The notes under the pieces are model-generated. The model was not told where the DNA came from. It made no database searches and saw only the letters and a list, made by a program, of their open reading frames with translations. A stretch of 64,000 nucleotides of DNA. Source: an uncultured Thermoleophilaceae bacterium (GTDB taxonomy: Bacteria; Actinomycetota; Thermoleophilia; Solirubrobacterales; Thermoleophilaceae). Where the stretch lies: assembly GCA_963811205.1 (NCBI GenBank), contig CAWEQJ010000003.1, forward strand, positions 11,223 to 75,222, read 5' to 3'. Of this stretch, positions 5,722 through 64,000 are shown piece by piece (position 1 is the first letter of the stretch; each line of letters begins with the position of its first letter). A program made the position numbers and the translations under genes.

Positions 5722-6363
5722 GAGGAGTCGAGCTGCTGCGCCTGCCGGCGCCGGCTTGCTGCGAGACTCTTCGGCGGGCGCGTCCGGAGCCGCCAGCGTC
5801 TCGAGCAGCGCCATCACCAGCGGTGCCGCGACGTCTGGCCCTCGTGGTCGGCCTTCTTCAGCCGGGCCAGGCTGGCCGCGTGGATCTTGTCGATCCTGTC
5901 GAGCATCGACGACAGCTCGGCGGCGATGTCCTTCCAGCCGCGGTCGTCGAGCGTCATGTCCGACGCGGCTGAGGTGCGCCTCGGCGCGGTCGAAGCCGCC
6001 CTGTGACGCGCTTGTGGTGCACCAGCTCGAGGATCTGCTCCACCGCGGCGCCGGTCATCGCCTGCTTGACGATCTCCGGCACCTGGCCCCATGCCTTGTC
6101 GCTGATCCGCGGGCGCGCGCCTGCAGCCGGTAGTGGTGCTCCACCGCGCCGCGGCGGGGCGTGGTCTTCACGAGCTTGATCAGATCGAAGCGAGCGAGCT
6201 GGCGCATGTGGTAGCTCACGCGGTTCACCGGCAGCCCGAGGGTGGTCGCGATCTCCACGGGACTCCCGTCCTTCTCCTCCAGCAGGCGCAGGATCTGAAC
6301 GCGCAGCGGGTGGGAGAGTGCCTTGACGGTTTCGGTGTCGGTGATGTCAGTCAGCGGTTTCAC
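5718..6363 (-). pseudogene. ArsR-family winged-helix regulator with an extended C-terminal region, apparently frameshifted
   Basis: ORF 6055..6363 gives MKPLTDITDTETVKALSHPLRVQILRLLEEKDGSPVEIATTLGLPVNRVSYHMRQLARFDLIKLVKTTPRRGAVEHHY. It continues in other frames (ORF 5814..6092: MTLDDRGWKDIAAELSSMLDRIDKIHAASLARLKK). The 3' end is uncertain; one candidate stop overlaps the protease stop. Confidence 0.6.
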
Positions 6364-6505
6364 TCGCGCTCCTTCGCGCTTGCACAGCGACTCGATTTAC
6401 GGAACCCATGGTTTGACGCAGCGAAAGTTGACCGCCACGTCATCGCCCCTTCGGCGCCAGTGTATGCGGACTGACCGTTCCCCGCGAGCTGCTCGCTCGT
6501 TTGCG

Positions 6506-7120
6506 CTAGCGCGCTTCGGCCGCCCGGGCCACGAGGTCCACACAGGCGTCCAGCTCGATGGCCGTCGAGTCCACCACGAGGTGGAATAACGACATGTCGC
6601 GCGGGTCCGCGCCGTAGAAGTGGCGCACGTACAGGTCGCGGGCGCGGTCGGTCTGGCGCATGCGCTCCCTGGCGGTGTCGCGGTCCACTCCCTGGATGCG
6701 CATCGCCTGCTCGATGCGCGCCTCTTCCGGCCCGTCGAGCCGCACGCGTAGCACCTCCGGCCGGTCGCGCAGCACGAACGCGCACGCGCGCCCGAGGATC
6801 ACGCCCTTGCCCGCTTCGGCGTGCTCGCAGATCACCCGCTCCGTGGCGTCGCGGTACACGTCGTTGCCCATCAGCGCCTCGCTCGCGGTGCCGCTGACGT
6901 AGGCGCCGGACAGGGGCGCGAAGTGCTTGAGCATGCGGTCGAGCAGGCTGCCCACGTTCTCGTCGTGGTCGAGCGCGTGCGACAGCGGCACGTCCAGGCT
7001 CTCCGCCACCTTGGTGGGGATGGCGCGGTCCACGAACGGAACGCCCAGGCGTTCCGCCAGCTGTGGCCCGACGACGCTGCCTCCGGCGCCGTATGAGGCC
7101 GAGATGGCGATGAGGGTCAT
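6506..7120 (-). CDS. Cytidylate kinase-like family protein (P-loop NMP kinase fold)
   Basis: Intact 204-aa ORF with N-terminal AISASYGAGGSVVGPQLAERLGVPFVDRAI, typical of this family. It overlaps the upstream GHMP kinase gene by 4 nt (ATGA). Confidence 0.75.
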   Translation of the reverse strand: MTLIAISASYGAGGSVVGPQLAERLGVPFVDRAIPTKVAESLDVPLSHALDHDENVGSLLDRMLKHFAPLSGAYVSGTASEALMGNDVYRDATERVICEHAEAGKGVILGRACAFVLRDRPEVLRVRLDGPEEARIEQAMRIQGVDRDTARERMRQTDRARDLYVRHFYGADPRDMSLFHLVVDSTAIELDACVDLVARAAEAR

Positions 7121-8049
7121 GAGTTCCCGCTCCCCGCCCGCGATTCTATGGGCCCGGTGCGAGGGCGCACGGCTTTGGCGCCCATGCGCTCGAGCGCGGG
7201 GCGCAGGCGCTCCCAGCAGTCCTCGGTGCTGAGCGTGCCGACGATCGCGCCGCCCGAGCCCGCCGAGTTGGCCGACGCGCCGGCGGCGCGCGCGGTCTCC
7301 ACCATCCGGGCTGTCAGCGGGTCCACGCTCATGATCTTCAGCCGCTCATCGAACGAGGCGTCCACGCAGCGGCCGAACGCGGCGTGGTCTTCTTCCAGCA
7401 GGGCGTCGCGGGCGCGGGTTGCGTGCTCCGCCAGGCGCTCCATGGCCGCCGTGATGTCCGGGTCGCCCTGCGCGTGGCGCCTTCTCAGCTCCCCGTGCAC
7501 CGCGCCCGATGGCGCCGCCGCGTCCGGATGCCAGGCCACGAAGAGCGGCGGGAGCAGCCCCGGGTCGAGCTCCTCGTGCACCGCATCGAGGCCGAAGTCC
7601 ATCACCACCAGCGTCTCGCGCGCCTGGACCTGGCGGTCCTGGAGCCCGGCGGCGATGCCGAGGTCCTCGGTCTCCACCGCCAGCGCAAGGCGAGCCAGCT
7701 CGTCGGGCGGCAGCTCGGCGCCGTGGAGGTCGCAGAGCGCCCGCGCGCAGGCGATCACGATCGCGCTCGAGCCGGCGAGGCCGACCTCGCGCGGCACGTT
7801 GGTGTGGCAGGCGAGCCGTACCGGCTGCGGCGCGCCCAGGCGCTTGCGGAAGCGCGTGAGGGTGGCGCCCATCAGCTCCTCTCCTCCCGGCCCCGGGGAC
7901 CCGAGCGCGTCCTCCGCCGCGGGGGTGGCGGTGGCCTCCGCCATGAAGTCGCGCACGGTGACCGCAAGGGTGCGGCCGCCGTAGCCGTCGGAGGGGTTGC
8001 CCGCGAGCGCGACGCGCGCGTAGGCCGTGCCGGTGCCGGTGGGCTTCAT
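7117..8049 (-). CDS. GHMP-family kinase
   Basis: Intact 310-aa ORF with the GHMP motif PREVGLAGSSAIVIA and a C-terminal SGSGGAIVG. Confidence 0.75.
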   Translation of the reverse strand: MKPTGTGTAYARVALAGNPSDGYGGRTLAVTVRDFMAEATATPAAEDALGSPGPGGEELMGATLTRFRKRLGAPQPVRLACHTNVPREVGLAGSSAIVIACARALCDLHGAELPPDELARLALAVETEDLGIAAGLQDRQVQARETLVVMDFGLDAVHEELDPGLLPPLFVAWHPDAAAPSGAVHGELRRRHAQGDPDITAAMERLAEHATRARDALLEEDHAAFGRCVDASFDERLKIMSVDPLTARMVETARAAGASANSAGSGGAIVGTLSTEDCWERLRPALERMGAKAVRPRTGPIESRAGSGNS

Positions 8050-8126
8050 CGGCGCTGAGCATGGCAGCCGAAAGATGGGGGTGGCTCCCCGATGTTCGCG
8101 CCCCAGCGCCCGCCTAGCGTGGCGCC

Positions 8127-9491
8127 ATGCTCAGACTCGCCTCACTTCTCTTCGCCGTTCTCGCGCTCGCCCTGGCGGGGGCTGCGCAGGCACGCAAGCC
8201 GATCGTCGCCTACATCGACCAGACCACCCACAAGCTGGCGCTGTACGACGCGGAGACCGGCGCCAACCTCACCCCGCCGAGCATCACCATCACCTCCACG
8301 CCGGGCTTCCAGGACGCGATGGCGATGTCGTTCGACGGCCGCTACGTGTTCTACGCGGGCAGCGACGACAAGCTGCACCTGTTCGACCGCTCGGGTGCGG
8401 GCAGCGCAGTGCCGCTGCCGGGGATCGACATCTACGCCAAGCCGACCGGGCTGAGCGTGAGCAACACGGGGCTGGTCGCCTTCGACAACAACGTGAACGG
8501 TCCGGCGGTGGTCTACGACAGCGCCAGCGGCAGCTTCGTGGATAGCGGGCTCGACTCGAGCACCAATCACAGCCGCCAGAGCCATCTGAGCGGCGACGGC
8601 CACTTTCTCGCCACCACCTGCAACGACCTCGCGCCCGCCTGCCCGGTGGACAGCGGCGGCCACTCGCAGCTGTTCGTGCAGGACATCCCCGGCAAGGCGG
8701 ACACCGCCAACCCGCCCTTCGACCTCGGCAACAGCCTCGACGGCGTCGACAAGGAACACCCGTGCATCAACAACGACGGCTCGCTCGTGGGCGCTGACGT
8801 GAACGAGGGCGGCACCGTGGGCAAGCAGGTGGAGATCTACAACCGCTCGCTCGGCAGCCTGGTGACGCCACCCGGCCTGAACAGCGCGGCAAACGTCGAC
8901 GACGTGCACTGCGTGATGAGCCAGGGTGCCGCGTACATCGGGCTGATCAGCGACAACGAGTTCAAGGTGTACGAGATGTCGAGCGCCAGCTTCCTCATGC
9001 TCCCGGCGGACATCAAGGCCATCAGCAACCCGATCTCGTTCGTGATGCCGTTCCCGCCGCCGCCGCCGCCGCCGGCGGCCGGCCCGCCACCGCCGTCCGC
9101 GGGCGCGCCGGACACCGCGGCTCCGCGCGTGCTCAGCAAGCGCTTCCGGAAGAGCTACGGGCTGGCTGGCGCGCTGAAGCACGGGTTGCTGGGGCGGATC
9201 ACGTCGAGCGAGGACGGCCGCGCCAGCGCCAGCGCCACCATCACCCGCGGAGCGGCCAGGCATCTGGGTCTGGCGGCGGCCAAGCGCAGGTCCAAGCGGC
9301 CGGTGAAGGTGGCCGCCGGCTCGGTGCGGCTGCACGCGGGCCACCCCGCCAAGCTACGGCTGAGGTTCACCCGCCGCGCCCGGCGCAAGCTGGCGCACAC
9401 CCGGCGCGTGAAGCTGATCATTCGCCTGACCGTGAAGGACGCCGCCGGGAACGCCACGCACGCCAGCGTGAGGACCACGTTGAAGCGCTAG
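8127..9491 (+). CDS. Secreted hypothetical protein (probable beta-propeller/TolB-like body, poly-Pro linker, basic C-terminal module)
   Basis: Intact 454-aa ORF with signal peptide MLRLASLLFAVLALALAGAAQA. It has a PPPPPPPAAGPPPPSAGAPDTAAPR linker followed by a ...VKDAAGNATHASV... module shared with two other secreted proteins in the window. Confidence 0.65.
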   Translation: MLRLASLLFAVLALALAGAAQARKPIVAYIDQTTHKLALYDAETGANLTPPSITITSTPGFQDAMAMSFDGRYVFYAGSDDKLHLFDRSGAGSAVPLPGIDIYAKPTGLSVSNTGLVAFDNNVNGPAVVYDSASGSFVDSGLDSSTNHSRQSHLSGDGHFLATTCNDLAPACPVDSGGHSQLFVQDIPGKADTANPPFDLGNSLDGVDKEHPCINNDGSLVGADVNEGGTVGKQVEIYNRSLGSLVTPPGLNSAANVDDVHCVMSQGAAYIGLISDNEFKVYEMSSASFLMLPADIKAISNPISFVMPFPPPPPPPAAGPPPPSAGAPDTAAPRVLSKRFRKSYGLAGALKHGLLGRITSSEDGRASASATITRGAARHLGLAAAKRRSKRPVKVAAGSVRLHAGHPAKLRLRFTRRARRKLAHTRRVKLIIRLTVKDAAGNATHASVRTTLKR

Positions 9492-9561
9492 TGGTGGATC
9501 TTCCGTCCAGGGCGTGGCACGTGGGCTGGCGCCGGGCGCCCGCGCCGCCGATCAGTAACGC

Positions 9562-9848
9562 GTGTACACCTCGTCGGTGAGCGGAATGAACCTCGGTGGC
9601 CTGATCCACGCGGCCTCCACCGACAACATCGCCAACGTCGACAGCGAGGGCTACCAGCCCTGGCAGGTGAATCCGGCCACGGACGCCACCGGCGGCGTGA
9701 ACGCGACGGTGAGCAAGTCGCAGAACACGGGTGTGGACCTGGCCAGCGACATGGTCGGTGTCATGACCGGCGCCGTCACCTACAAGGCCAACGCCCGCGC
9801 GTACGAGATGGAGAACGAGGCCGAGAAGAGCCTCGTCGACCAGCGCGT

Positions 9849-9852
<4 letters not shown>
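9562..9852 (+). CDS. Small (96 aa) flagellar basal-body rod (FlgB/FlgC)-like protein
   Basis: The N-terminus [29 protein letters not shown] resembles the flg_bb_rod signature. The C-terminus [36 protein letters not shown] resembles the rod C-terminal motif. It has a GTG start and no flagellar neighbours. Confidence 0.45.
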
Positions 9853-11695
<1,843 letters not shown>

Positions 11696-11713
11696 GGCTA
11701 GAGACAGTAGAGG

Positions 11714-12957
11714 TCACACGGCTTCGACCAGCTGCGCCGCCAGGTCGCCACGCCGCGACCGCCACCGACTCCAGGCCCAGCCAGTCCGCCATCACGTGCA
11801 GCTCGGCGGCCAGCTCCGTCGCGGTCTCCTCGGGCGCGTCTCGCTCTCCGTGGGCCGCCTGCACGCGCAGCACGCCCGCCTTGCGGTCGGCCTTCAGGTC
11901 CACGCGCGCCACCAGCCGGTCGCCGAGCAGGAACGGCAGCACGTAGTAGCCGTGCACGCGCTTGGGCGCGGGCACGTAGATCTCGAGCCGGTAGCGGAAG
12001 CCGAACAGGTCCTCCGTGCGCGCAGCGCTCGAACACGAGCGAGTCGAACGGCGACAGCAGCGCGCGGCGCGCGCACGCGCCGCGGCCGCGCGCGTCGCGG
12101 TGCAGGTACGCCGCGCCGCTCCAGCCCTCGACCGCCACCGGGATCAGCTCGCCCTCCTCCACGAGCTCCGCGATCGCGGGCTGCGCCTCGTGCGGGCGCA
12201 GGCGGAAGTAGTCGCGCAGGCACTGCTCGCTGGCCACGCCGTGCGCGCGCGCGGCGATGCGGATCAGCTCGCGCCGCGCGTCGGCCGGATCGGGGTCCGG
12301 CGCGTTCGCGATCTCCGGCGGCAGCACGCGCTCGGGCAGGTCGTAGCGGCGCTCGAACTGCTGGGTCCGCCCGGCGGCGGTCACCTGGCCCGACCAGAAC
12401 AGGTACTCCAGCGCGCGCTTGGTGTGCGGACCAGTTCCAGCCCCACTCCTCGCTGCTCGTGGCCGGCACGTCGTGCTGCAGCTCCTCCTCGAGCCGCGCC
12501 GCGGTGAGCGGGCCGCGGCTGCGGCCACCTCCTCGAGCACGGCCGCACCACGATCCGGGTGCTCGCGCGCGAGCGGCCGCATGCCGCCCCAGGCGTCGCT
12601 CGTCCGCGCTCTCCATGCGCCAGCGCAGCAGCCGGTGCGTGGCCGGCGGGATGAACGACGCCTCGTGCGCCCAGTACTCCACCAGGCGCCGCGGCTCGCG
12701 GCCCGCCGCACGGTCGAGCAGCGCGATGTCGTAGTTGCCGAGACGGCTGAACAGCGGCATGAGGTGGCTGCGCGCGAGCACGTTCACCGAGTCGATCTGG
12801 ATCAGCCCGATGCGGTCGATCACGCGCTGGAGCTGGCGCATCGTCACGCGGCCGCGCTGGCCGCGGGTCGGCGAAGCCCTGCGCGCGCGAGCGCGATCCG
12901 CCGCGCCTGCGTGAGCGTCAGCGACGCGTGGGGTGCGGGTGGGGCGGCCTTTGCCAC
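11714..12957 (-). pseudogene. YcaQ-family winged-helix DNA glycosylase (interstrand crosslink repair family), with several apparent frameshifts
   Basis: Pieces seen are [91 protein letters not shown] and [43 protein letters not shown]. Both ends are approximate. Confidence 0.7.
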
Positions 12958-24591: not shown

Positions 24592-24620
24592 CTGAGCCAG
24601 CTACCCGATGCGCGTGGGGA

Positions 24621-25999
24621 TCACGCGCCCGGCGCCAGGGCGTTGGCGGCCTTGGCCTCGGCTTCGGCCACCTCGCGCGTACCCTCCACCCGCTCGATCG
24701 CCTGCAGCTCGCGGCACACCCGCCGGATGATGATGAACACGGCCACCGGCAGCACGAACACGAGCACGCGGTAGACCCAGATCTGCGTCGCGTAGCTCCA
24801 GCCGAGGAACAGGTAGATCCGGTCCGCCGAGCCGGCGACGAAGATCAGGAACACCCATGCTAGGAACGCCGCGCCGAACGCCGTGCGTCCGGGCGCGTCG
24901 CGCGGGCGGTCGAGCACGTTGTGGTACTCCCGGTCGCCGGTGATGCGGCGCTCGATCCAGGGCCAGCCCAGCAGCACGCCCAAGCACGATCAGCGGGAAC
25001 AGCGCGCCGCCCCAGAACGGGTTCGGCACGACCGTGTAGCCGCCGATCGTCACGTCGAAGCCGGGCACCAGCCGCAGCGCGCCGATCAGCCAGCCGAGGT
25101 ACCAGTCGGGCTGCGCGCCGTTGGTGCCCTGCCGCGAGGTGGTACGGGCCCCAGAGCCAGATCGGGTTGATCTGCACGAGCCCGCCGAGCAGGAACAGCA
25201 GCCCGGCCACGCCGAACATCAGCCCGAGCGAGCGCGGCGCCTGGCCGGGAACATCGGCACGCCCGAGCAGGCGCCGGTCGGTGGCGCGCCGCGAGCGGCG
25301 GAACTGCGTGTGGTGGCGCGAGGCCACGAGCGCGAGGTGCACCGCGATCAGCGTCGGCGATGATGCGCGGGGAAGAGGAACACGTGCGCGATGTACATGC
25401 GCGACTCGAACGCGGGGTCGCCCGGAAACGGCGCGCCCCAGAGCGAGCAGCCCGAGGTTGCCGCCGACGAACGGGATCGAGAGCGCCACGCCGTAGCCGA
25501 TCGCGAGCCCCATGCCCGACAGCAGGTCGTCGACCATCGAGTAGCCGAGGTAGCCCTCGAGCAGCGGTGGTGAACAGCATCAGCAGGCCCACGACGTAGG
25601 TGAGCTCGCGCGGCTTGCGGAACGCGCCGGTGAAGAAGATGCGCATCAGGTGGAGCACGATCGCGGCCACGAACACGTCGGCCGCCCAGTGGTGGGTCTG
25701 GCGGATGAGCAGCCCGGCCTTCACGTCGGAACGAGATGTCCACCACGGACTTGTATGCCTCGCTCATCTTCTGCCCCTGCAGCGGGGCGTAGCTGCCGTG
25801 GTACACGGTGTCGGCCAGGCTCGGCTGGAAGAAGAGCGTGAGGTAGATGCCGGTGGCCGACCAGCACGATGAACGCGTAGAGCGCCACCTCGCCGAGCAG
25901 GAACGACCAGTGGTCGGGGAACAGGTAGCGCAGCGTGCCCCTGATGAACGGCGCGCCGCCGCTGCGCGAGTCGATGAAGCCGACGAGCCGGCGGATCAC
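24621..25999 (-). pseudogene. qcrB: Cytochrome bc1 complex cytochrome b subunit, with many apparent frameshifts
   Basis: Pieces across frames are FIRGTLRYLFPDHWSFLLGEVALYAFIVLV, LIRQTHHWAADVFVAAIVLHLMRIFFTGAFRKPRELTYVVGLLML, DDLLSGMGLAIGYGVALSIPFVGGNLG, INPIWLWGPY, PNPFWGGALFP and C-terminal WPWIERRITGDREYHNVLDRPRD. The GTG start overlaps the qcrA stop (GTGA). Confidence 0.85.
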
Positions 26000-27002
26000 G
26001 AGGAGCTCCCCGGGTTCACCGCGGGCCGCTTGCGCACGCCCCACCACGACGGCCCAACGGGACCTGAGAAGTTGCCGGCCGCGCGCAGGTGGCCGTCGCC
26101 GTCGATCTCGAGCGGCAGCTGCGGCAGCGGCGCGGCCGGCCGGGCCGAACAGCACCGTCGCCGCCGTCGCGCCGGGTCGAAGGTGGAGTAGTGGCACGGG
26201 CACACCAGCGCCGGCTCGGGCTCGACCGGCGGGAACATCGGCTTGCGGTAGAGCGCGATCGCGCAGCCCGCGTGCGTGCAGATCTTCGAGTAGGCCACGA
26301 TGCCGAGCGGCGCCCAGCCGCGCGCGCGCGCGCGGCAGCTTGAGCGCGCTCGGGTCGAGCCGCACGATCACCACCGGCGCCGCGATGTCGTTGCGCGATG
26401 GCGTGCTCGGGATAGGCCGTGTAGAAGGTCTCCTGCTCGATGTCGGCGGCCTTGATCGGCACGCCGTCCTCGCGTACGAGCCGCTTGCCGCGCCGCCACG
26501 GGGACCAGCGCAGCTCGTCGGTGTCGAGCGCCGGCCCGAGCGACAGCGCCGGCGCCAGCGCCGCCAGCCCCGAGCGCGCCGCGCGGCCGCGCCCGCCGCG
26601 GCCTGCACCAGGCGCTTGCGCGTGAAGCGGCTGCCGCTCTCGCGCACGATCTGGCGTCACCGCGGCCTGATCCTGCGGGTGCTCCTGCGCCGGGTAGTCC
26701 TCGCTGAGCTCCTCGGTCACCACGAGGCGCTTGCCCAGCAGGATCAGCGCGGCCGCCATGAACACCAGCGAGCCGCCGAGCGCGATCCCCTCGTACTGCG
26801 TCTGGTTGGGCCAGTGATCGGTGGCATAGACCACGATGAAGCCGACGGCGAACAGCGCCGACAGGAGCAGCAGCGCCACCAGCCACAGCTCAGCGGCGGG
26901 CTGCCTCGAACCCTCCCTGACGATCCTCCGGCGGTGGCCCTTGCCGAGCGCGCCACCCACGATCGCGCCGAGTGCGAACACGAACGACCGCAGCCGGCTC
27001 AT
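25996..27002 (-). pseudogene. qcrA: Rieske iron-sulfur subunit of the bc1 complex, with apparent frameshifts
   Basis: The N-terminal TM region is MSRLRSFVFALGAIVGG...LWLVALLLLSALFAVGFIVVY. The Rieske boxes are CTHAGCAIA and CPCHYSTFD. The C-terminus is LPQLPLEIDGDGHLRAAGNFSGPVGPSWWG. Confidence 0.8.
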
Positions 27003-27794
27003 GCGCGCAACCTCTCGCCGATCAGCACGCACAGGCCGATCAGCGCCACCGCTGCGATGAACCAGGTGAGCAGCCCCTCGGGCACCGGGCCGAGGTGCCC
27101 GATGCCCCAGCCGCCGCGGTCGGACGGCTGCTTGACGGACTGGATGTAGGCGATGATCGAGTTGAGCTGGCGGTCGCTGATGTGCCTATGTCGAGAACTT
27201 CGGCATCAGGTTGGGCCCGACGCGTACGGCCTCGGCGATCTGGGTGGGCGTGTCCTCCTTGATCGGCGGCACGCGCACGTTCGGTCACGTAGCCGCCCTC
27301 GGCCACCGCCTGGTGGCAGCCGGCGCAGTGCTCGGTGAACAGGTGGAAGCCCTCGGACACCTTGCCCGCGGCCGGATCGGGATGCGGGATCGGCGGGCCG
27401 GGCGCGAGCGACGCCACGTACTGCGTGATCGCGTCGATCTCCTTTGGCGTGAACTCCACGCGCCGCCGCCACGGCTGCTGATGCGGGTTCTGGAGTGGCA
27501 TGAAGCCGGTGGTGAGGAAGAGGTCCGCGGCCTGGGCGCCCACGCCGGCGAGCGGCGGTCCCTGGCCCTTCACGTTGCCCGCGCCGCGCCGGGGCTCGGC
27601 TCCGGCACGCCGCGGCCGGCGATGCCGTGGCAGCTCGCGCAGTTGCCCGCGTAGAGCTGCGATCCCAGCTCCTGCTGCGAGAGGCCCTTCTCGTTGTCCG
27701 GCCGCGAGATGCCGCTCGGCAGCTCTGCATGCGCCACCGCGGCCAGCGCGAGCGCCGCGAGCGCGATTGCGATCAGGGTTCGCGCGCGCCTCAT
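26999..27794 (-). pseudogene. qcrC: Diheme cytochrome c subunit of the bc1 complex, with apparent frameshifts
   Basis: The signal peptide is MRRARTLIAIALAALALAAVAHA. There are two heme motifs, CASCH and CAGCH. A C-terminal TM anchor, LLTWFIAAVALIGLCVLIG, is recovered after frame changes. Both ends have ATGA overlaps. Confidence 0.8.
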
Positions 27795-28168
27795 CCCTGG
27801 TGGCAGCTCGGCAGGATCTCGGTGGCGATCCCGCTCATCAGGATGATCACGAGGAAGAGCGGGCTGATCACCATCCCGCAGATGGACAGGAAGTAAATGC
27901 GGCCCTCCGGCGGCGCGCTGTCGCTGTCGGCGCCGCGCGTGGCGCGGAAGGTGAGGACCGAAGCCGCGAGCGCGGCCACGGCCAGCGCGCCCGCCAGCGC
28001 CGTCGCGATGGCGGTCCAGGTGTCGATCGGCACGCTCACCCCGCGGCTGCCGACGCTGCACGAGGCGTCGGACACGCCGATGCCGAACGCGTGCTGGCAC
28101 GCCCACATCGCGGGCGCGCCGAGGATGCCGGCCCACATCAGCAGCTCCACTGAGCGCCGGGTCCTCAC
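27791..28168 (-). CDS. Hypothetical membrane protein embedded between ctaE and qcrC
   Basis: GTG 28168 overlaps the ctaE stop (GTGA). The sequence reads VRTRRSVELLMWAGILGAPAMWACQHAFGIG...TWTAIATALAGALAVAALAASVL...YFLSICGMVISPLFLVIILMSGI (3-4 TM). Its stop overlaps the qcrC ATG. Confidence 0.5.
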   Translation of the reverse strand: MRTRRSVELLMWAGILGAPAMWACQHAFGIGVSDASCSVGSRGVSVPIDTWTAIATALAGALAVAALAASVLTFRATRGADSDSAPPEGRIYFLSICGMVISPLFLVIILMSGIATEILPSCHQG

Positions 28169-28747
28169 AGCGCCGGATACACCTGGGTGAACACCACGCC
28201 GATGCCCACCAGGCTGACGAAGTACCAATAGAGCGCCGCCACCCGCACGCCCACCAGGCGGTAGCTCGTGAGCCCGCCCGCCAGCTTGCCCGACGAGCCA
28301 CAGCTCGATCAGCATCCCCACGGCCACGTGGGCGTGGTGGATACCGAGCAACGTGAAGTAGATCGACGCGTACGCGGAGCCGTGCGGGCTGAACTTGTCG
28401 AGGTCGCCGAGGAACTCGTGCAGCTGCACTCCGAGGTAGCCGCCCTGGATCACGAGCGCCGCGAGGAAGCACAGCCAGGCGAGCCCCGCGTTGCCCGCCC
28501 GCGCCGCGCGGCTGCCAAGAAACACCGGCACCGTGCTCGCCACCAGCACCCCGGTGAGCACGAGCGGCAGCGCCAGCTTGGGATCGGGCACGCCCGGCGG
28601 CGGCCACTGCGCGCTGTTGAAGCGCAGGTAGAAGTAGGTGGCGATCAGCGAGGCGAACAGCGTGGCCTCCGTGGCCACGAACAGGGCCGCGCCCCAGATC
28701 CCGTTCGGCAGGGCCCGCCGCTGGCTGTCCGCATTCACGCCGCTCAC
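28165..28747 (-). pseudogene. ctaE: Cytochrome c oxidase subunit III, with one apparent frameshift near 28270
   Basis: GIWGAALFVATEATLFASLIATYFYLR, FTLLGIHHAHVAVGMLIELW, then in another frame TSYRLVGVRVAALYWYFVSLVGIGVVFTQVYPAL*. Confidence 0.8.
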
Positions 28748-28748
28748 C

Positions 28749-30652
<1,904 letters not shown>

Positions 30653-58335: not shown

Positions 58336-58409
58336 GCCGACGTAGCTCAGTTGGCCAGAGCACCGCTCTCGTAAAGCGGGGGTCGTGGGTTCGAATCCCA
58401 CCGTCGGCT
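58336..58409 (+). tRNA. tRNA-Thr (anticodon CGU)
   Basis: Hand-folded cloverleaf: acceptor GCCGACG/CGTCGGC, D arm GCTC-AGTTGGCCA-GAGC, anticodon arm CCGCT-CTCGTAA-AGCGG (CGT), T arm GTGGG-TTCGAAT-CCCAC, discriminator T. No encoded CCA. Confidence 0.95.
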
Positions 58410-58420
58410 TGGCTCTGGGA

Positions 58421-58460
58421 AGCGGAATCCGGGGAGTTGCCGGGTTCCGCTCTTTCGTTT
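58421..58460 (+). terminator. Hairpin plus T-rich tail after the tRNA
   Basis: AGCGGAATCCGG-ggagttg-CCGGGTTCCGCT (one G:U), followed by CTTTCGTTT. Confidence 0.5.
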
Positions 58461-58530
58461 CGGACACATTTCGGACACATGGGGCGGAGCTGCAGTGTCC
58501 GGGCAGGGCCATCTCGGGGCGAGGTAGGCG

Positions 58531-59514
58531 TTGCTTGACCCGAGCCCACAATCGCGACCTATCCTGCTTCGCGTGGACGTTCGCTCGCCGGATGACGTAG
58601 ACGACGCTCCCGACGACCTGGCGGCGTCGGTTCAAAGGCGAACGCTCCCCAGGTACATCACGGAGCGCAGGGAGCGGGCTGAGGCTCAGTACGCCAGACA
58701 TGAGGCGCTCCTACGTCCCGCGGTGCAGGCCCATCTCGCCACGGATCGAACGGTGGTCGACGCCCTCGACGCCTGGCATCGGCAGATCGCGGACGAGTCA
58801 AACTTGACTCTAGATGGCGATAGCCGCCAGGCAGCGACGTGGCTTGTGGCTGGCAGGTGCATCGGCCTTGCACGGGCAGTGCTCGCGCTCCTTGAGGCCG
58901 GGTTCACGGCGGAGGCCGCTGCGGAGGTCAGAGTGCTCCACGAGGCGACGAGATTGTTGTGGGTGCTCGCCGACGAGGACGAGCCCGAGCTGTTGCGTCG
59001 GTGGCTCGCGGATGAGGACAACCGCTGGGTCCGACCGTGGGAGGCGCGCATCGCCGGGGATCGTCAGCGGGAGCGCGTGGCCGAGCGCCTACCAGATGCC
59101 TTGAAGGAGGCCGAGGCCCACGGCGATACGGAGAGCGCCGCGCAGCTGGCGGAAGCCATACGGACCGCCCGCCTCGATGAGGACGGTGTTTTGGCGGCGA
59201 ACAGCCTCCAGATCTACGACGTCCTCTCGCGGATCGGTCATATCCGCCGGTCGAGCATGCGGGACTCGCTCTCGACGGCCCTCCGCCAGATGGCGACCGG
59301 TCCCCACCCCGATCCGCTCGTTCGCGCCGAGTACGTCGAGTGGGTGAGCCACATCATTGAAGAGGTGGTCCTCGCGGTCTGTGATGCGTTGGGCCCGTTC
59401 TTCCCTGGGGGCTCGGCGATCACGCTCATGCGAAAGCTGGTCGGTGCCCTGGACCTTGCGCGTGCTGAAGCGCCGCTCGACGCGGTGACGCGGGCTTCGA
59501 TCGCGCGCCGCTGA
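58531..59514 (+). CDS. Hypothetical all-alpha protein (first gene of the island)
   Basis: 327-aa ORF with a non-ATG start (TTG 58531, or GTG 58573). No motif recognised with confidence. ATWLVAGRCIGLARAVLALLEAGFTAEAAAEVRVLHEATRLLWVL is faintly reminiscent of DUF5677-type proteins, which is speculative. Confidence 0.4.
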   Translation: MLDPSPQSRPILLRVDVRSPDDVDDAPDDLAASVQRRTLPRYITERRERAEAQYARHEALLRPAVQAHLATDRTVVDALDAWHRQIADESNLTLDGDSRQAATWLVAGRCIGLARAVLALLEAGFTAEAAAEVRVLHEATRLLWVLADEDEPELLRRWLADEDNRWVRPWEARIAGDRQRERVAERLPDALKEAEAHGDTESAAQLAEAIRTARLDEDGVLAANSLQIYDVLSRIGHIRRSSMRDSLSTALRQMATGPHPDPLVRAEYVEWVSHIIEEVVLAVCDALGPFFPGGSAITLMRKLVGALDLARAEAPLDAVTRASIARR

Positions 59515-59546
59515 GCGGGTTGACGAGCGGTTCGGGCTTGGAGAAG

Positions 59547-60080
59547 TCAGCCAGCCAGGGAGTAGGGGTCGAGCATCCCTAGGTTGATCAAGCGGTACTG
59601 CATTGCTGCGGGGCTGACTTGAAATCGCTGGGCCAGCGCCGACACCAAGTCCGGCGGTGTGAGGTTGTGGCGTTTCGCGACGATCTTGTCGATCTCCTCG
59701 GGGACGAGGCTTCGTGGCATCAGTAACTCGGCCGCGAACGCATTTGCCTGCCGCTCCTCCGAGGTGGACTGTCCATCGCGGAGGTTCACGCGAACAAAGC
59801 GATCGATGAAGACCGGCTGACCCTTGTGCATCTCGAGATGACCGATCTCGTGGGCGACGGTGAAACGCTGACGAGTCGGTGCGTGCCGGGAATTCACGCC
59901 AATGACAGCTGTGCCCTCACCTCGGAAGAGCATGCCGGAGATGTCCCCATCAAACGACTCGTAAGTGACTTGGACACCAAGACGGCGTGCGATCTGCTCG
60001 ACCGGCACCGGAGAGTCCGAGATACCCATCCGGTCCAGCACGCCGATCGCCTTTTGCTCGGCCGATGAGGGCGCGGTCAT
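59547..60080 (-). CDS. ImmA/IrrE-family zinc metallopeptidase (CapP-like)
   Basis: Intact 177 aa with the HEIGHLEMH zincin motif. Its ATG overlaps the stop of the upstream XRE gene (ATGA). Confidence 0.85.
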   Translation of the reverse strand: MTAPSSAEQKAIGVLDRMGISDSPVPVEQIARRLGVQVTYESFDGDISGMLFRGEGTAVIGVNSRHAPTRQRFTVAHEIGHLEMHKGQPVFIDRFVRVNLRDGQSTSEERQANAFAAELLMPRSLVPEEIDKIVAKRHNLTPPDLVSALAQRFQVSPAAMQYRLINLGMLDPYSLAG

Positions 60081-60424
60081 TGCTCAGCCGCCGAGCGACG
60101 CACCGGCTGACCATGAGACTTTCGGAGCACGCGAGTAGCAAAGTCGAGGCCTTCGGCGTCTTGCTGCAGCGCTTTGAGGGCACGTTGGGGAAGCAACTCG
60201 TCGACACCTCCGTCGTGGTCGGGGAGAAGGTCGGCGGGCTGTCGTCCAACGGCAGCTGCGAGGAGGTAGAGCTGGTGCAGGCTGATGTGTTGACGTCCGC
60301 GTTCGATGTTTGTTACGGACGTACGCGTGAGCCCAACCCTCTCCGCGACATGCTCCTGAGTAAGCCCGACCTCTTTTCGGGCGTCCCGGAACTGGCGGCC
60401 AAACTGGCGGTACAGCCCATCCAC
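60077..60424 (-). CDS. XRE-family helix-turn-helix regulator (CapH-like), probably leaderless
   Basis: The HTH is FRDARKEVGLTQEHVAERVGLTRTSVTNIERGRQHISLHQLYLLAAAVG. GTG 60424 lies 7 nt after a -10-like hexamer. The ORF track's TTG 60460 would add an atypical N-terminus. Confidence 0.8.
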   Translation of the reverse strand: MDGLYRQFGRQFRDARKEVGLTQEHVAERVGLTRTSVTNIERGRQHISLHQLYLLAAAVGRQPADLLPDHDGGVDELLPQRALKALQQDAEGLDFATRVLRKSHGQPVRRSAAEQ

Positions 60425-60431
60425 CGTGCGG

Positions 60432-60460
60432 AGTATGGCGCGGATCAGGACATATGTCAA
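60432..60460 (-). promoter_or_regulatory. Predicted promoter of the XRE-ImmA operon, overlapped by the palindrome TGTCAATATCGCTGACA (60455-60471)
   Basis: On the minus strand: TTGACA (60460-60455), a 17-nt spacer, CATACT (60437-60432), 7 nt, then GTG 60424. The TGTCA-N7-TGACA inverted repeat covers the -35. Confidence 0.45.
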
Positions 60461-60512
60461 TATCGCTGACAGTTTGCGAAGTTGACGTCGGCTACTGCAC
60501 GCGACACAGTCA

Positions 60513-60541
60513 TTGACATCACCCCCCAGCTTCGGTACGGT
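60513..60541 (+). promoter_or_regulatory. Predicted promoter of the Ubl-E2-E1 operon
   Basis: TTGACA (60513-18), a 17-nt spacer, TACGGT (60536-41, TANNNT). The small palindrome GTCATTGAC (60509-17) overlaps the -35. RBS AAGGAG is at 60566-71. Confidence 0.4.
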
Positions 60542-60580
60542 GGGGTTTGTCAGATCGCCATTGAGAAGGAGATGATGTCA

Positions 60581-60864
60581 ATGTCGCAAACATCCGCAGA
60601 GCCGACGACCCATCCCTCCAACGGGGGCCGCCACGGGGTGACCGTGAAGGTGAACAACAAGCCGGTGGTTATTTCACGCCGCCGGGTGACCGGTCTGCAG
60701 ATCAAGGAGGCGGCAATAGCGCAGGGCGTAGAGATCGAGCTCGACTTCATCCTCACGCTCGAGGCGCGCGGCGGCAAGCCAGCGGAGACGACGACGACGA
60801 TCAGACGATCACCATCACGAAGCATTCAGAGTTCATCGCGAACGACGGAGACGACGACTCGTAA
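60581..60864 (+). pseudogene. Multiubiquitin-type ubiquitin-like (beta-grasp) protein, with one apparent frameshift at about 60783
   Basis: HGVTVKVNNKPVVISRRRVTGLQIKEAAIAQGVEIELDFILTLEARGGKPA continues in the next frame, through a (GAC)n run, as GDDDDDQTITITKHSEFIANDGDDDS*. ATGs are at 60572, 60575 and 60581. The TAA at 60862-64 abuts the next ATG. Confidence 0.65.
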
Positions 60865-61281
60865 ATGAAGGTCACCGTCGTCGCGGCGATCAAAGAGATC
60901 TCCGATGCACGGGTCGGCACTGACGTCCGGACGAAGGAGGACGCCGACGGCGGGGCTTACGTGATCGTGGACGGGATACGCGTCGGGGCGTCGTTCTCGC
61001 CCTCGACCGCCTGGATCGGCTTCCACATCGTCTGGGCCTACCCGGATGCAGACGTGTATCCCCACTTCGCCGACGCGAGCCTCAAGTACGTCGGCGCCAA
61101 CTCGACGCCCAACCAGTACCCCGAAGGCAATCTGCCCAGCGCGATGACCCGCGGCGCGACGATGCCTGGCTTCGAGGTGCCGGCGATCCAGATCTCGCGC
61201 AAGTCGAATCGCCGCAACGCGGAAACCGACTCCGCGCTCCGGAAGCTATTGCGAATCATTGAGTTCTTGAGGACGCGCTAA
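60865..61281 (+). CDS. Prokaryotic E2/UBC-like protein without any cysteine
   Basis: Intact 138 aa. WIGFHIVWAYPDADVYPHFAD...QYPEGNLP...AIQISRKSNRR fits my recollection of the Prok-E2 families that sit next to multiubiquitin and JAB-E1 genes. It is wedged between the Ubl and the E1 by TAAATG and TAATG junctions. Confidence 0.55.
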   Translation: MKVTVVAAIKEISDARVGTDVRTKEDADGGAYVIVDGIRVGASFSPSTAWIGFHIVWAYPDADVYPHFADASLKYVGANSTPNQYPEGNLPSAMTRGATMPGFEVPAIQISRKSNRRNAETDSALRKLLRIIEFLRTR

Positions 61282-62720
61282 TGCAGCAGTGGACCCTGAG
61301 GTTCGAGGAACTCATGTACGAACGGCTATGCGCCCACCTCTTCCCCGGTGACAACGACGAACATGGGGCTGTAGTCGCTGCCGGAATCGTGTCCACCGAG
61401 CGCGGGACACGGTTGCTCGCGCGCGACCTCTTTCTCGCGGAGGACGGGGTTGACTTCGTGGCGGGCGTGCGGGGATACCGACGGCTGACCCCCCAATTCG
61501 TCCGCGAGCGAATCCGGTTCTGCCGCGACGAACGGCTCACTATCTCGCCATCCATAACCACGGCGGGGCCAACTCGGTCGCGTTCAGCGAGCCCGACATG
61601 CGCTCCCACGAGCGCGGCTACCCCGCACTCCTCGATATCTCCGATCAGCCGGTGGGAGCGCTTGTCTTGGCCAAGAACTCCCTGGCCGGTGACATCTGGA
61701 CAGCGGACCGTCGACGTCGGTCGATCAGCGAGACGGTGGTGGTGGGCCGGAATCTGCACCGCGTCTATCCAGAACCGCCGGCGCCGCCGCCGAAGGCGGA
61801 TCCGACCTATGACCGGCTGGTCCGGTGGTTCGGCGAGCGGGGCCGCGATTTGCTGGCGACGATGAAGATCGGCGTGGTCGGCGCTGGCGGGGTCGGCCTA
61901 CCGGTCGTCACGATGCTGAGTCGGCTTGGGGTAGGGGAGTTAGTTGTGATCGATCCGGACCGGATCGATCCCACCAACCTTCCGCGCATGCCAGAAGCCC
62001 GTCGGCTCGATGCATTGATGCCGCTGCGGAGGATCCCGGGCGGGGCGCCGCTCGCTGATCGATTGTCAACCCGAAAAATTCGTCTCGCCCGCCGCGCAGC
62101 TCGACGGGCCAATCCGAAGATCCGCTTCAAGGGATTCCCAACCAACGTCGTCGAGCCCCGGGCGGCGTTCGAGCTCGTCGACTGCGACTACATATTCCTC
62201 GCCGCAGATGGGCACCTGGCTCGAATGCTGGTGAACGCCGTGGCGCACCAGTTCCTGATTCCCGCCGTGCAGCTCGGCACCCGGATCGACGTTGACCGGA
62301 ACTCGGGGGCTGTCGGAGATATCCGCACGAACGTCCGGCCGATCCTTCCTGGCAGCGGCTGCCTTCGCTGCAACGGCCTGATCTCGGCCGCCAAACTCCA
62401 AGAGGAGGCGACCGCCCCTCGGGAGCGGGAGCGGAATCGGATACGTGGAGGAAATTCCCGCCCCGAGCGTGATCACGTTCAACACCTGGGCAGCCTCGCA
62501 GGCAGCGTCAGACTTCCTGCTCAGCGTCGGCGAATTCCTGGAACCAGCAGCGCCGATCGACTATCTGCGATCGCGGCCGCGACTGCGCAAGGTCGAGCCG
62601 GTCAGACCAGTCGCCAACAAGCCACGATGCCGCGACTGCGGATCCGAATCGAGTAGCCGCAGAGCGCGCGGACAAGGTGTCGAGCTGCCGCTCCCAGAGC
62701 GGCGGGCGGGTCAACGATGA
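61281..62720 (+). pseudogene. JAB/MPN (JAMM) peptidase domain fused to a ThiF/E1-like adenylyltransferase, with two apparent frameshifts (about 61540 and about 62440)
   Basis: The N-terminus has NDEHGAVVAAG (JAMM Glu) and, after a frame change, YLAIHNHGGANSVAFSEPD (HxH...SxxD). The E1 part has MKIGVVGAGGVGLPVVTMLSRLGVGELVVIDPDRIDPTNLPR, DYIFLAADGH, CLRC...CRDC (two CxxC pairs) and EEIPAPSVITFNTWAASQAASDFLL. Confidence 0.75.
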
Positions 62721-62775
62721 GATCGACGAATGCGCAGGATAGGAGTGCCCATTCACCAGCACCCACGCCCGAGCG

Positions 62776-63342
62776 CTAAGGCTCGATGCCCAGTTCCCTT
62801 AAAGAGACGGCTGTCTGGACTAGGCCTGCGTGCTCGATGTTGTCCAGGTACTCCGTGATGGTCACGGGCGGATTGCGAAGCCGTGCGACCACCCTGCGGG
62901 CGGCGCTGATCACTAGGCCTGGGTGCAGGTCGACGGCGTGGTGGATGAAAACGTCGGCTCGTTGAGCTTCGATTCCGTACGGCTCGAGTTTGTCAGCGGG
63001 GAAGTCCTTGATGTTCTCGGTGACAATTACGTCCGCCTTGGCGACGATGGCAGCGGCGAGAACGTGCCGGTCGTCGGGGTCGGGAAGCTCGAGCGAGTCC
63101 ACGAGGCTCATGTGGCCCTCGACCAGGACATCGGGAATGGCCTCTCTCATGAGCTGTTTGCTGCGCTCGAGTTGTTTCGGATCGAGGTCCTTCCGCGCGT
63201 CGAGGATGTTGCGGAAGACCTCGTCAAGGATCTCTTCGGTGTAGCGGGCGCGGAACTCGCCGGCGAGTCCCATCTCGAGTAGCAGGTCGCGGATGGTTGC
63301 CGGGTACAGGACACACGCGTCGTAGACGGCGGTGAACGCCAC
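62776..63342 (-). CDS. PIN-domain toxin
   Basis: Intact 188 aa. The N-terminal AVYDACVLY supplies the first acidic residue, followed by DDRHVLAAAIVAKADVIVTENIKDF. Confidence 0.75.
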   Translation of the reverse strand: MAFTAVYDACVLYPATIRDLLLEMGLAGEFRARYTEEILDEVFRNILDARKDLDPKQLERSKQLMREAIPDVLVEGHMSLVDSLELPDPDDRHVLAAAIVAKADVIVTENIKDFPADKLEPYGIEAQRADVFIHHAVDLHPGLVISAARRVVARLRNPPVTITEYLDNIEHAGLVQTAVSLRELGIEP

Positions 63343-63348
63343 TCGCGC

Positions 63349-63795
63349 TTAGTAGCCGAGGCCGAGCTCTTGCGCCTCGTCAGCGAGCTGCTGCATGACC
63401 TCGGCGCGCTGAGCATCGTCGCGGCGCTTGTATTCGAGAAGATCGCTGAGGACGATCCGCCGGTGCGTGCCGACCTTGTGAGCCGGCAGCTTCTTGTCCT
63501 CGATCAGTTGGACCACGTAGGGTCGAGACACGTTCAACAGCTCGGCGGCCTGTTGGGTGCTGAGTTCCGCGTGTTTGGGCATCACGACGATCCCGTCGCC
63601 GTTGGCAAGATGCGCGAGGATGTCGATGAAAAGGCGGAACGCCGGAGCGGGGACCATGACCGCTTCGCCTTCAGGGGTGCACAGCTGGACCGTGGAAGCT
63701 TGCTCCTGAAGGAGACCGACGAGCGCCCGGGCAGCGTCGGCCGCCTCGGCGGTTTGTTCCTGCGGCAGTGCGGTGGGGTCAAGTGTCGCTGTCAT
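63349..63795 (-). CDS. Excisionase-type (MerR-like) HTH antitoxin partner of the PIN protein
   Basis: Intact 148 aa. LSTQQAAELLNVSRPYVVQLIEDKKLPAHKVGTHRRI. It lies 6 nt upstream of the PIN gene. Confidence 0.7.
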   Translation of the reverse strand: MTATLDPTALPQEQTAEAADAARALVGLLQEQASTVQLCTPEGEAVMVPAPAFRLFIDILAHLANGDGIVVMPKHAELSTQQAAELLNVSRPYVVQLIEDKKLPAHKVGTHRRIVLSDLLEYKRRDDAQRAEVMQQLADEAQELGLGY

Positions 63796-64000
63796 ACGTC
63801 CCTCCGGTTCTTCGTCCTGGCTCAGTATATCGACAAACGAAATAAATGCAATAGCCGAAATGGACGAAACTACGAGCTTCCGACCGTCTTCGCATCGCGC
63901 GAAAGCGCGTGTCGCATGCCCACTGTGGCGCTACGCGATGAATCGATCTGTGCCCTCGGCGTCGCGTGCGGCCTCAATTGCGGCCTCGGCTGGTGTCCGC

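Follow-up and report, generated by a model that had tools for sequence, protein, structure and literature searches.

The subject of this analysis is a gene cassette for ubiquitin-like (Ubl) protein conjugation, found in a stretch of 64,000 nucleotides (nt) from an uncultured Thermoleophilaceae bacterium (GenBank assembly GCA_963811205.1, contig CAWEQJ010000003.1, positions 11,223 to 75,222 of the forward strand), which is referred to below as the window. Three genes encode, in this order, a Ubl, a 138-amino acid (aa) protein resembling ubiquitin-conjugating (E2) enzymes, and a fusion of a JAB/JAMM peptidase domain to a ThiF-type adenylation domain resembling ubiquitin-activating (E1) enzymes (JAB::E1). 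The genes of an ImmA-type metallopeptidase and of a helix-turn-helix (HTH) regulator of the XRE family are divergent from them. Judged by sequence and predicted fold, the cassette is a relative of Type I Bub, because its JAB::E1 is homologous to BubCD, the closest structure to its E2 model is BubB, and its Ubl matches Multi_ubiq and BubA. Bub is the present name of the operons formerly called 6E/DUF6527 (Ye, Gong, Chambers, Corbett 2024, PMC11601596). The features of the locus are the following.

59547-60080, minus strand: ImmA/IrrE-type zinc metallopeptidase with an HEIGH motif, 177 aa (Pfam Peptidase_M78, 91 bits)
60077-60460, minus strand: XRE-family HTH repressor, CapH/ImmR-like (HTH_31/HTH_3; PADLOC capH)
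60425-60580, no strand assigned: putative divergent control region with TTGAC/GTCAA repeats
60581-60864, plus strand: Ubl with a single beta-grasp domain, BubA-like, about 94 aa (Pfam Multi_ubiq)
60865-61281, plus strand: E2-like protein, BubB-like, 138 aa, gene intact (AlphaFold2 model and Foldseek match to BubB)
61281-61800, plus strand: JAB/JAMM peptidase domain of the JAB::E1 fusion (alignment to BubCD)
61801-62720, plus strand: E1/ThiF adenylation domain of the JAB::E1 fusion (Pfam ThiF, 94 bits)

The initial annotation of the window, made from the letters alone, had described the same arrangement between 59547 and 62720, and both the open reading frames (ORFs) and the sequence agree with it. 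The junction TAAATG at 60862-60867 joins the Ubl gene to that of the 138-aa protein, and TAATG at 61279-61283 joins the latter to the JAB::E1 gene. On the opposite strand, the ImmA gene overlaps the XRE gene by 4 nt, as in an operon.

The frame-repaired JAB::E1 (the frame breaks are discussed below) is 479 aa long. In a phmmer search of the Protein Data Bank (PDB), its residues 12-419 aligned to chain positions 15-405 of Citrobacter BubCD (9ea4_A) with E = 6.9e-23, and the homology covers both domains. The BubCD structures 9ea5 and 9eav were matched as well, and the next-best E1 scored 36 bits. The prototype of Type I Bub (6E.1) is the set BubAB-BubCD-BubE of Citrobacter sp. RHBSTW-00271 (PDB 9ea4, 9ea5, 9eae), in which BubAB fuses Ubl to E2, BubCD fuses JAB to E1, and BubE is a Ser-His protease of the DUF6527 family (PF20137) with a C4 zinc finger (PMC11601596). 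All the motifs that had been listed for the JAMM::ThiF/E1 fusion in the initial annotation were found in place. Those of the JAB domain are E27, H92xH94, and S103xxD106, of which E27, H92, H94, and D106 align with E28, H91, H93, and D104 of BubCD, residues that bind zinc and are needed for cleavage (Ye et al., PMC11601596). Those of the E1 domain are G201xGGxG206 and the two CxxC pairs, C361xxC364 and C450xxC453; in addition, Arg236 aligns with the adenylation residue Arg227 of BubCD, and the crossover-loop Tyr388 (encoded at 62442-62444) with Tyr370. Six of these residues (E27, H92, H94, D106, R236, and Y388) were strictly invariant in 36 JAB-E1 homologues, S103 was present in 35 of the 36, and both CxxC pairs were conserved except for C453, which was missing from one homologue. 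The crossover loop contains no free cysteine, the only cysteines nearby being the CxxC zinc ligands, and as in Type I Bub an invariant tyrosine is found instead. The zinc motifs themselves distinguish the window E1 from that of Citrobacter BubCD, which has no cysteine at the position aligned with the first CxxC; the alignment does not extend to the second pair. Intact JAB::E1 genes of 476-479 aa were found in three other loci of the cassette (L004, L005, and L007), and the databases contain about 120 full-length proteins of this kind.

Contrary to the E1 domain, the N-terminal 185 aa of the fusion, which comprise the JAB domain, matched no Pfam family even at E = 10, Prok-JAB included, and no NCBIfam or PADLOC profile. 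The same was true of the 138-aa protein, for which the Prok-E2 profiles were included. Thus, among the profile searches suggested in the initial annotation, those with Multi_ubiq and ThiF gave matches, but those with Prok-E2_A to Prok-E2_E and Prok-JAB detected nothing. As Pfam profiles do not detect the JAB domain and the E2, their identity was established through comparison with PDB sequences and folds. By profile, structure, or sequence comparison, all three proteins of the cassette resembled Bub structures, in agreement with the beta-grasp, E2, and E1/JAMM folds that had been proposed for them.

The Ubl of the window matched Pfam Multi_ubiq (PF14452) at 36.5 bits, with a cut-off of 24.5, and its family profile matched the BubA structure 9cd2 of E. 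coli ZDHYS365 at E = 0.0015, which bears out its description as a multiubiquitin-type beta-grasp protein. A phmmer search of the PDB with the single Ubl sequence gave no match. The protein ends in ANDGDDDS directly before the stop codon (60841-60864). Of the 39 loci examined, 38 have a Ubl that closes with DD[D/N]S-stop; in L011, the exception, the protein ends in DDDSQP. The residues preceding it vary by clade, the tail being ANDGDDDS in the close clade of the window and AIENDDNS, AIPNDDNS, or AVAGDDNS in others. No conserved glycine was found at the Ubl C-terminus across the 39 loci. Relatives in which the Ubl is fused to the E2 (P0346, P0309, P0280, P0283, P0296, and P0308) retain DDNS at the Ubl/E2 junction, followed by a variable linker. 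The DD[D/N]S tail resembles a P4-P1 recognition element, with the serine, and not a glycine, as the most likely C-terminus of the mature Ubl; as the gene ends directly after DD(D/N)S, no processing would be needed. Two observations speak against this assignment: a C-terminal serine is unusual for a substrate of an E1, and some of the fused relatives have a glycine two residues past the serine. Because of this glycine, processing sites may differ among relatives.

The 138-aa protein contains no cysteine at all, as had been noted in the initial annotation. Its AlphaFold2 model had a predicted local distance difference test (pLDDT) score of 91, and the best match of this model in a Foldseek search of the PDB was BubB (9eae_C, template modelling (TM) scores 0.64/0.68, probability 1.0), with Cap2, UBE2W, UbcH7, and the ubiquitin E2 variant (UEV) domain of Vps23 ranking lower. 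In phmmer searches of the PDB, neither this protein, nor a distant E2 (from L037), nor a fused relative (P0346) gave a match. The profile of the E2 family reached only enzymes of the ubiquitin-conjugating (UBC) fold at E of about 1, which hints at the fold but does not suffice for assigning the active site. A word-indexed search with the 138-aa protein gave 129 matches, nearly all of 137-140 aa, and an exhaustive search with the family profile gave 239 cluster representatives. The profile also reached longer proteins, with E values down to about 5e-23, in which the domain follows one to three Multi_ubiq-like domains, as in BubAB. In 39 E2 homologues representing both clades of the family, D63, Y65, P66, S111, and R112 were invariant, and H67 was present in 38. 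The invariant serine, S111, is encoded at 61195-61197 and lies within the motif Q-x-S-R-[RK]-S.

The protein could instead be a non-catalytic E2 variant of the UEV/RWD type, which would bind the Ubl or a target, while conjugation would proceed directly from E1 or would not take place. Consistent with such a role, it lacks cysteine, a UEV domain is among its fold matches, and the corresponding domain was regarded as inactive by Iyer et al. in 2006 (PMC1779556). Three further observations weaken the case for a BubB-like enzyme. In the weak UBC profile alignment (E of about 1), Pro91, which is invariant within the close clade and specific to it, takes the position of the canonical catalytic cysteine. 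The S-x-H of BubB, which belongs to the constellation S333/H335/D299, is S-R-[R/K] here, with no histidine at the +2 position. Finally, the arguments for equating S111 with S333 of BubB are its invariance and relative position only. However, the closest structure, BubB, is catalytic by means of a serine (PMC11601596), and S111 is kept in both clades and in the fused relatives, whereas conservation of Pro91 stops at the close clade. Moreover, the distance from S111 to the C-terminus is about 27 residues, as compared with 29 for S333. We consider it improbable that the protein is non-catalytic, and treat S111 as its putative catalytic residue.

The cassette is not confined to the window. The gene order Ubl, E2, JAB::E1 was kept in the genomes of 38 species from many phyla, and at 50% identity the family falls into about 240 clusters, with hosts in Actinomycetota, Chloroflexota, Nitrospirota, Acidobacteriota, Pseudomonadota, and Verrucomicrobiota. 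In the window and in all 38 genome loci, the Ubl and E2 genes are separate and parted by a stop codon. No gene for the DUF6527 protease BubE accompanies the cassette. Pfam searches gave no match to DUF6527 among the proteins of the island that carries the cassette in the window, nor did the precomputed Pfam assignments for genes of L001-L007. A search of 45 loci in six frames with a regular expression for the DUF6527 signature gave two matches only, both in implausible frames.

In a sister clade, we observed a conserved gene for a protein of about 530 aa, which directly follows JAB::E1 in tail-to-tail orientation in 17 loci (L016-L020, L023, L025, L026, L028, L030-L032, L034, L035, and L037-L039; for example, L020:8898-10499, minus strand). 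A relative of this protein with 27% identity is encoded upstream of the cassette in L010. The protein is absent from the clade of the window and matched no Pfam family and no PDB sequence. It is a candidate for a fourth component of the system, be it an effector, a target, or an alternative peptidase. In another of the loci, that of an Opitutaceae metagenome-assembled genome (MAG; L036:6082-9246), about 1.7 kb separate residue 319 from residue 314 of JAB::E1, an interruption of the gene that looks like a genuine insertion and not a sequencing error.

To our knowledge, the Bub pathways are the only ubiquitin-like cascades that proceed entirely through oxyester intermediates. In Type I Bub, conjugation requires Tyr370 of the E1 and Ser333 and His335 of the E2, which indicates oxyester instead of thioester intermediates (PMC11601596). 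The window cassette shares with this type the JAB::E1 fusion, a small E2-like protein with an invariant serine and no cysteine, a Ubl of the Multi_ubiq type, and the frequent company of an HTH regulator and an M78 peptidase. It differs from it in several respects. Its Ubl and E2 are products of separate genes, so there is no BubAB pre-protein, and it comes with no BubE. BubCD cleaves BubAB after a conserved glycine (PMC11601596), whereas the window Ubl ends in DD(D/N)S without one; it also has a single beta-grasp domain, in contrast to three in Citrobacter. Type II Bub (6E.2), which likewise uses tyrosine and serine oxyesters, and to whose ZDHYS365 BubA the profile of the window Ubl showed its weak match, fuses its E2 to its E1 and usually lacks a JAB, in contrast to the window. 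Type II Bub and the Bil pathways of both types (I and II) share with the window the general logic of Ubl, E1, and E2. However, in Bil the JAB is a separate protein, the E1 and E2 contain cysteines, and the intermediates are thioesters. The initial annotation had placed the cassette with the Bil/Bub pathways, and only the Bub half of this affiliation holds. A Bil-type cassette was ruled out, as the JAB is fused to the E1, the E2 is free of cysteine, and the crossover loop has no free cysteine. Two other identities were rejected as well: a sulfur-carrier system of the ThiS/MoaD kind, as there is no GG terminus and no rhodanese and the cassette lies in a mobile island, and the Cap2/Cap3 module of Type II CBASS (cyclic oligonucleotide-based antiphage signalling system), as the matches to its E1 were short and local and no CD-NTase is encoded.

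The link to the neighbourhoods predicted by Iyer, Burroughs, and Aravind proved correct. Their row 6e combines a polyUbl or Ubl, a cysteine-less, inactive-looking E2/RWD-like domain, and a JAB at the N-terminus of the E1, and lists certain actinobacteria; a standalone gene for a cysteine-less E2-like protein between the Ubl and JAB+E1 genes was also noted in the same work (PMC1779556). The initial annotation had portrayed the architecture as one that had only recently begun to be studied, but it is better charted than this implies, as the standalone E2-like gene was already on record in 2006. Unlike the window cassette, row 6e adds a metal-binding protein with the signature Cx3C...Hx2C, now known as DUF6527/BubE (PMC1779556). 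The cassette is therefore an uncatalogued variant of the recently characterised Bub, with a broad architecture that was predicted in 2006.

The interpretation of the cassette as a functional system depends on how its three frame breaks are read. The breaks are real in the sequence. By tblastn with intact homologues from other loci, each was placed at a single-base indel: one base is missing in codon 66 of the Ubl gene (60791-92), one is missing in codon 87 of the JAB domain (61539-40), and one extra base is present at 62441, immediately 5' of the codon for the crossover-loop tyrosine. Taken at face value, they would make the operon a decayed relic, in which genuine indels inactivated the Ubl and JAB::E1 of a defence-type cargo operon. 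Several observations favour this explanation and count against an intact cassette. A Logan contig from an independent assembly (L003, run ERR11718636) is identical to positions 58390-64000 of the window at 99.96% with zero gaps, agrees with it base for base over these 5.6 kb, and contains all three indels; because this assembly reproduces them, the majority of reads must have them, and they may be real. No homopolymer is involved at any of the three sites. The indels all fall within 1.7 kb of the Ubl and JAB::E1 genes, while six neighbouring genes (those of ImmA, XRE, E2, PIN, HTH_17, and the 327-aa protein) are intact. In addition, defence genes carried as cargo are often lost.

However, the window as a whole is rich in breaks of the same kind. 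A model based on GC content at codon positions revealed at least 28 same-strand frame switches without a nearby stop codon, clustered at 1.9-3.9 kb, 10.2-12.4 kb, and 24-28.3 kb. The genes affected, at 1559-4032 (plus strand), 9861-12427 (minus strand), and 24600-28750 (minus strand), include those of glutamine synthetase, a TypA-like GTPase, and ctaE/qcrC/qcrA/qcrB, housekeeping genes that are implausible as dead. According to Pfam, the catalytic domain of glutamine synthetase (glnA) is present in four consecutive pieces in different frames (profile positions 10-35, 55-116, 119-166, and 175-344), the gene of the TypA-like translational GTPase is spread across three frames, and the genes of cytochrome b (qcrB), cytochrome c (qcrC), and COX3 (ctaE) are split. 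The density of indels in the island, three in 5.6 kb, equals the background of the window, about 0.5 per kb. The breaks in the housekeeping genes indicate an indel-rich assembly and not biology, and gene-level readings of the window need frame repair. Among the relatives, the cassette was frame-broken in 4 of the 12 MAGs with "MFD" in the isolate name, which we take to be Nanopore assemblies, and no frameshift-type break was found in those species-genome loci whose titles lack "MFD". Outside the MFD set, two copies were clearly frame-broken, both on metagenome contigs: L006 (JGI) and L002 (Logan), the latter a duplicate of the MFD locus L001. The MAG/Logan pair L001/L002 shares its breaks too, so the agreement of two assemblies is not independent proof that a break is genuine. 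Nearly all of the family-invariant residues are still intact in the window. Decay is therefore unproven, and the many frameshifts in housekeeping genes elsewhere in the window make assembly error the likelier explanation. We regard it as probable that the three breaks are consensus errors of an error-prone long-read metagenome assembly, and a decayed relic as rather unlikely. As the breaks are most likely consensus indel errors, the cassette is probably intact in the organism.

The regulator genes form the second part of the locus. In PADLOC, as the initial annotation had recommended for the island, the XRE protein matched capH at 40 bits (E = 1.6e-10) and the ImmA protein matched capP at 119.6 bits (E = 3.6e-35). 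The comparison with CapH/CapP was thereby upheld as far as the divergent pair is concerned, but the peptidase is short. With its 177 aa it covers positions 4-154 of the 242 in the CapP profile and lacks the C-terminal part, which is a point against CapH/CapP-like control. The order of genes, a divergent XRE-type repressor followed by an M78/ImmA metallopeptidase, is that of CapH/CapP and also that of ImmR/ImmA in ICEBs1. CapH and CapP adjoin 31% of 544 Bub operons (PMC11601596). Of the 38 genome loci with relatives of the window cassette, 15 have a divergent ORF with an HExxH peptidase motif no more than 2.2 kb upstream, and orthologues of the window ImmA adjoin the cassette in L007, L011, and L014.

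The divergent region between the XRE and Ubl genes contains TTGAC/GTCAA repeats at about 60455-62, 60483-87, 60513-17, and 60574-80 (inverted repeats I1, I2, and I6), and these motifs are conserved in L014, L007, and L011. Promoter-like sites are present on both strands of 60425-60580, and the repeats are candidate operators or -35 boxes. One site with -35/-10-like elements (60460-60432, minus strand) takes in the TTG at which the XRE gene is annotated to start, and homologues of the XRE protein align from residue 11-13 onward only. This suggests that translation may start near 60424 and give a shorter, possibly leaderless protein. Different divergent regulators were observed upstream of the cassette in L005, L006, L012, and L004; they include a 362-aa fusion of HTH_3 to Peptidase_M78 accompanied by an approximately 105-aa protein, an HTH_3 gene accompanied by a 136-aa protein, and, in L004, a ribbon-helix-helix (RHH) protein. 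The control module is exchanged between copies, and the three core genes remain the same.

The surroundings of the locus are those of a mobile island. Its other features are the following.

58336-58409, plus strand: tRNA-Thr, anticodon CGT (ARAGORN)
58531-59514, plus strand: gene for a 327-aa protein (DUF5677 match of 25.8 bits, under the Pfam cut-off of 27.1)
62776-63795, minus strand: PIN gene (PIN_3/RSP_2648 family) and HTH_17 gene (Pfam/NCBIfam)

As stated in the initial annotation, the cassette lies in a low-GC island at tRNA-Thr. The GC content, about 70% over the window, falls to 62-65% from about 58 kb to the window end; the island begins right after the tRNA gene, and contig L003 begins within the 3' half of this gene, at 58390. 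The part of L003 beyond window position 64000 (5542-9969) encodes a 227-aa integrase fragment, HTH_17, Replic_Relax, and small ORFs, a content suggestive of an integrative element of actinomycetes. The 4.4 kb past the window were searched for an att-type direct repeat of the tRNA-Thr 3' end, and none was present. The PIN gene matched the NCBIfam RSP_2648 family at 119 bits, below the 170-bit cut-off of the family, and is adjoined by a gene for a 148-aa protein with an excisionase-type HTH_17 domain; the two form a toxin-antitoxin-like pair unrelated to the cassette. This pair and the 327-aa gene do flank the cassette in the window, as described initially, but neither recurs with it. No homologue of the 327-aa protein was found in any of the 44 other cassette loci, and the PIN/HTH_17 genes were not found beside the cassette in other loci. 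They were ruled out as components of the system, since they never co-occur with the cassette elsewhere, and are island cargo outside the conserved cassette.

This setting bears on what the cassette may be for. Instead of acting against phages, it could serve the mobile element itself or the response to stress in general, for instance by modifying proteins of the host or of the element after DNA damage, with control of the ImmR/ImmA type as in ICEBs1. The element carries integrase, excisionase-type HTH, and Replic_Relax genes, the 177-aa peptidase is nearer in size to ImmA proteins of phages and integrative and conjugative elements than to full-length CapP, and published work on Bub operons reports no phage-defence phenotype, its authors suggesting a look beyond immunity (PMC11601603). 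On the other hand, relatives of the cassette are found beside integrases, DarT/Macro (DarTG), HsdR of type I restriction-modification systems, and AbiEi/AbiEii, and the related Bil and CBASS pathways of the Ubl type are antiphage (PMC11601596). A role apart from phage defence seems less likely than not.

Taken together, these results make it likely that the locus is a Bub-type cassette (row 6e of Iyer and Aravind, Type I Bub-like) on a mobile element integrated at tRNA-Thr, placed under divergent ImmR/ImmA (CapH/CapP-like) control. The proposed mechanism is the following. By analogy and from its gene context, the XRE protein would bind the TTGAC/GTCAA repeats in the divergent region of about 120 bp and keep the operon off, until DNA damage, phage infection, or induction of the element leads the ImmA-like metallopeptidase to inactivate it. 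By homology to Citrobacter Bub, the E1 domain would then adenylate the carboxylate of the C-terminal serine of the single-beta-grasp Ubl, which would pass to Tyr388 of the E1 and on to Ser111 of the E2, in both cases as an oxyester, and from there to target proteins. The JAB domain would most likely strip the Ubl from the targets and thereby replace the missing BubE/DUF6527 protease, because an unfused Ubl leaves no pre-protein to cut and there is no BubE.

The unfused, DUF6527-less cassettes could represent a distinct third type of Bub, characterised by a ready-made Ubl ending in serine, an E2 serine in an Arg/Lys environment, a fused JAB as the sole deconjugating enzyme, and, in the sister clade, recruitment of the protein of about 530 aa instead. 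We put this forward tentatively, with the chances leaning slightly against it. The window locus itself is one of hundreds in the family and of poor sequence quality, and too much should not be read into its frame breaks. The published catalogue of Bub was built from operons that contain DUF6527 (PMC11601603), and catalogues anchored in this way miss cassettes of this kind. The cassette is present in cultured hosts, namely Nocardioides szechwanensis, Bradyrhizobium spp., and a plasmid of Mesorhizobium. If widespread, the BubE-less form would reveal which parts of the Bub pathway are dispensable, and it would offer a minimal three-protein system for biochemistry.

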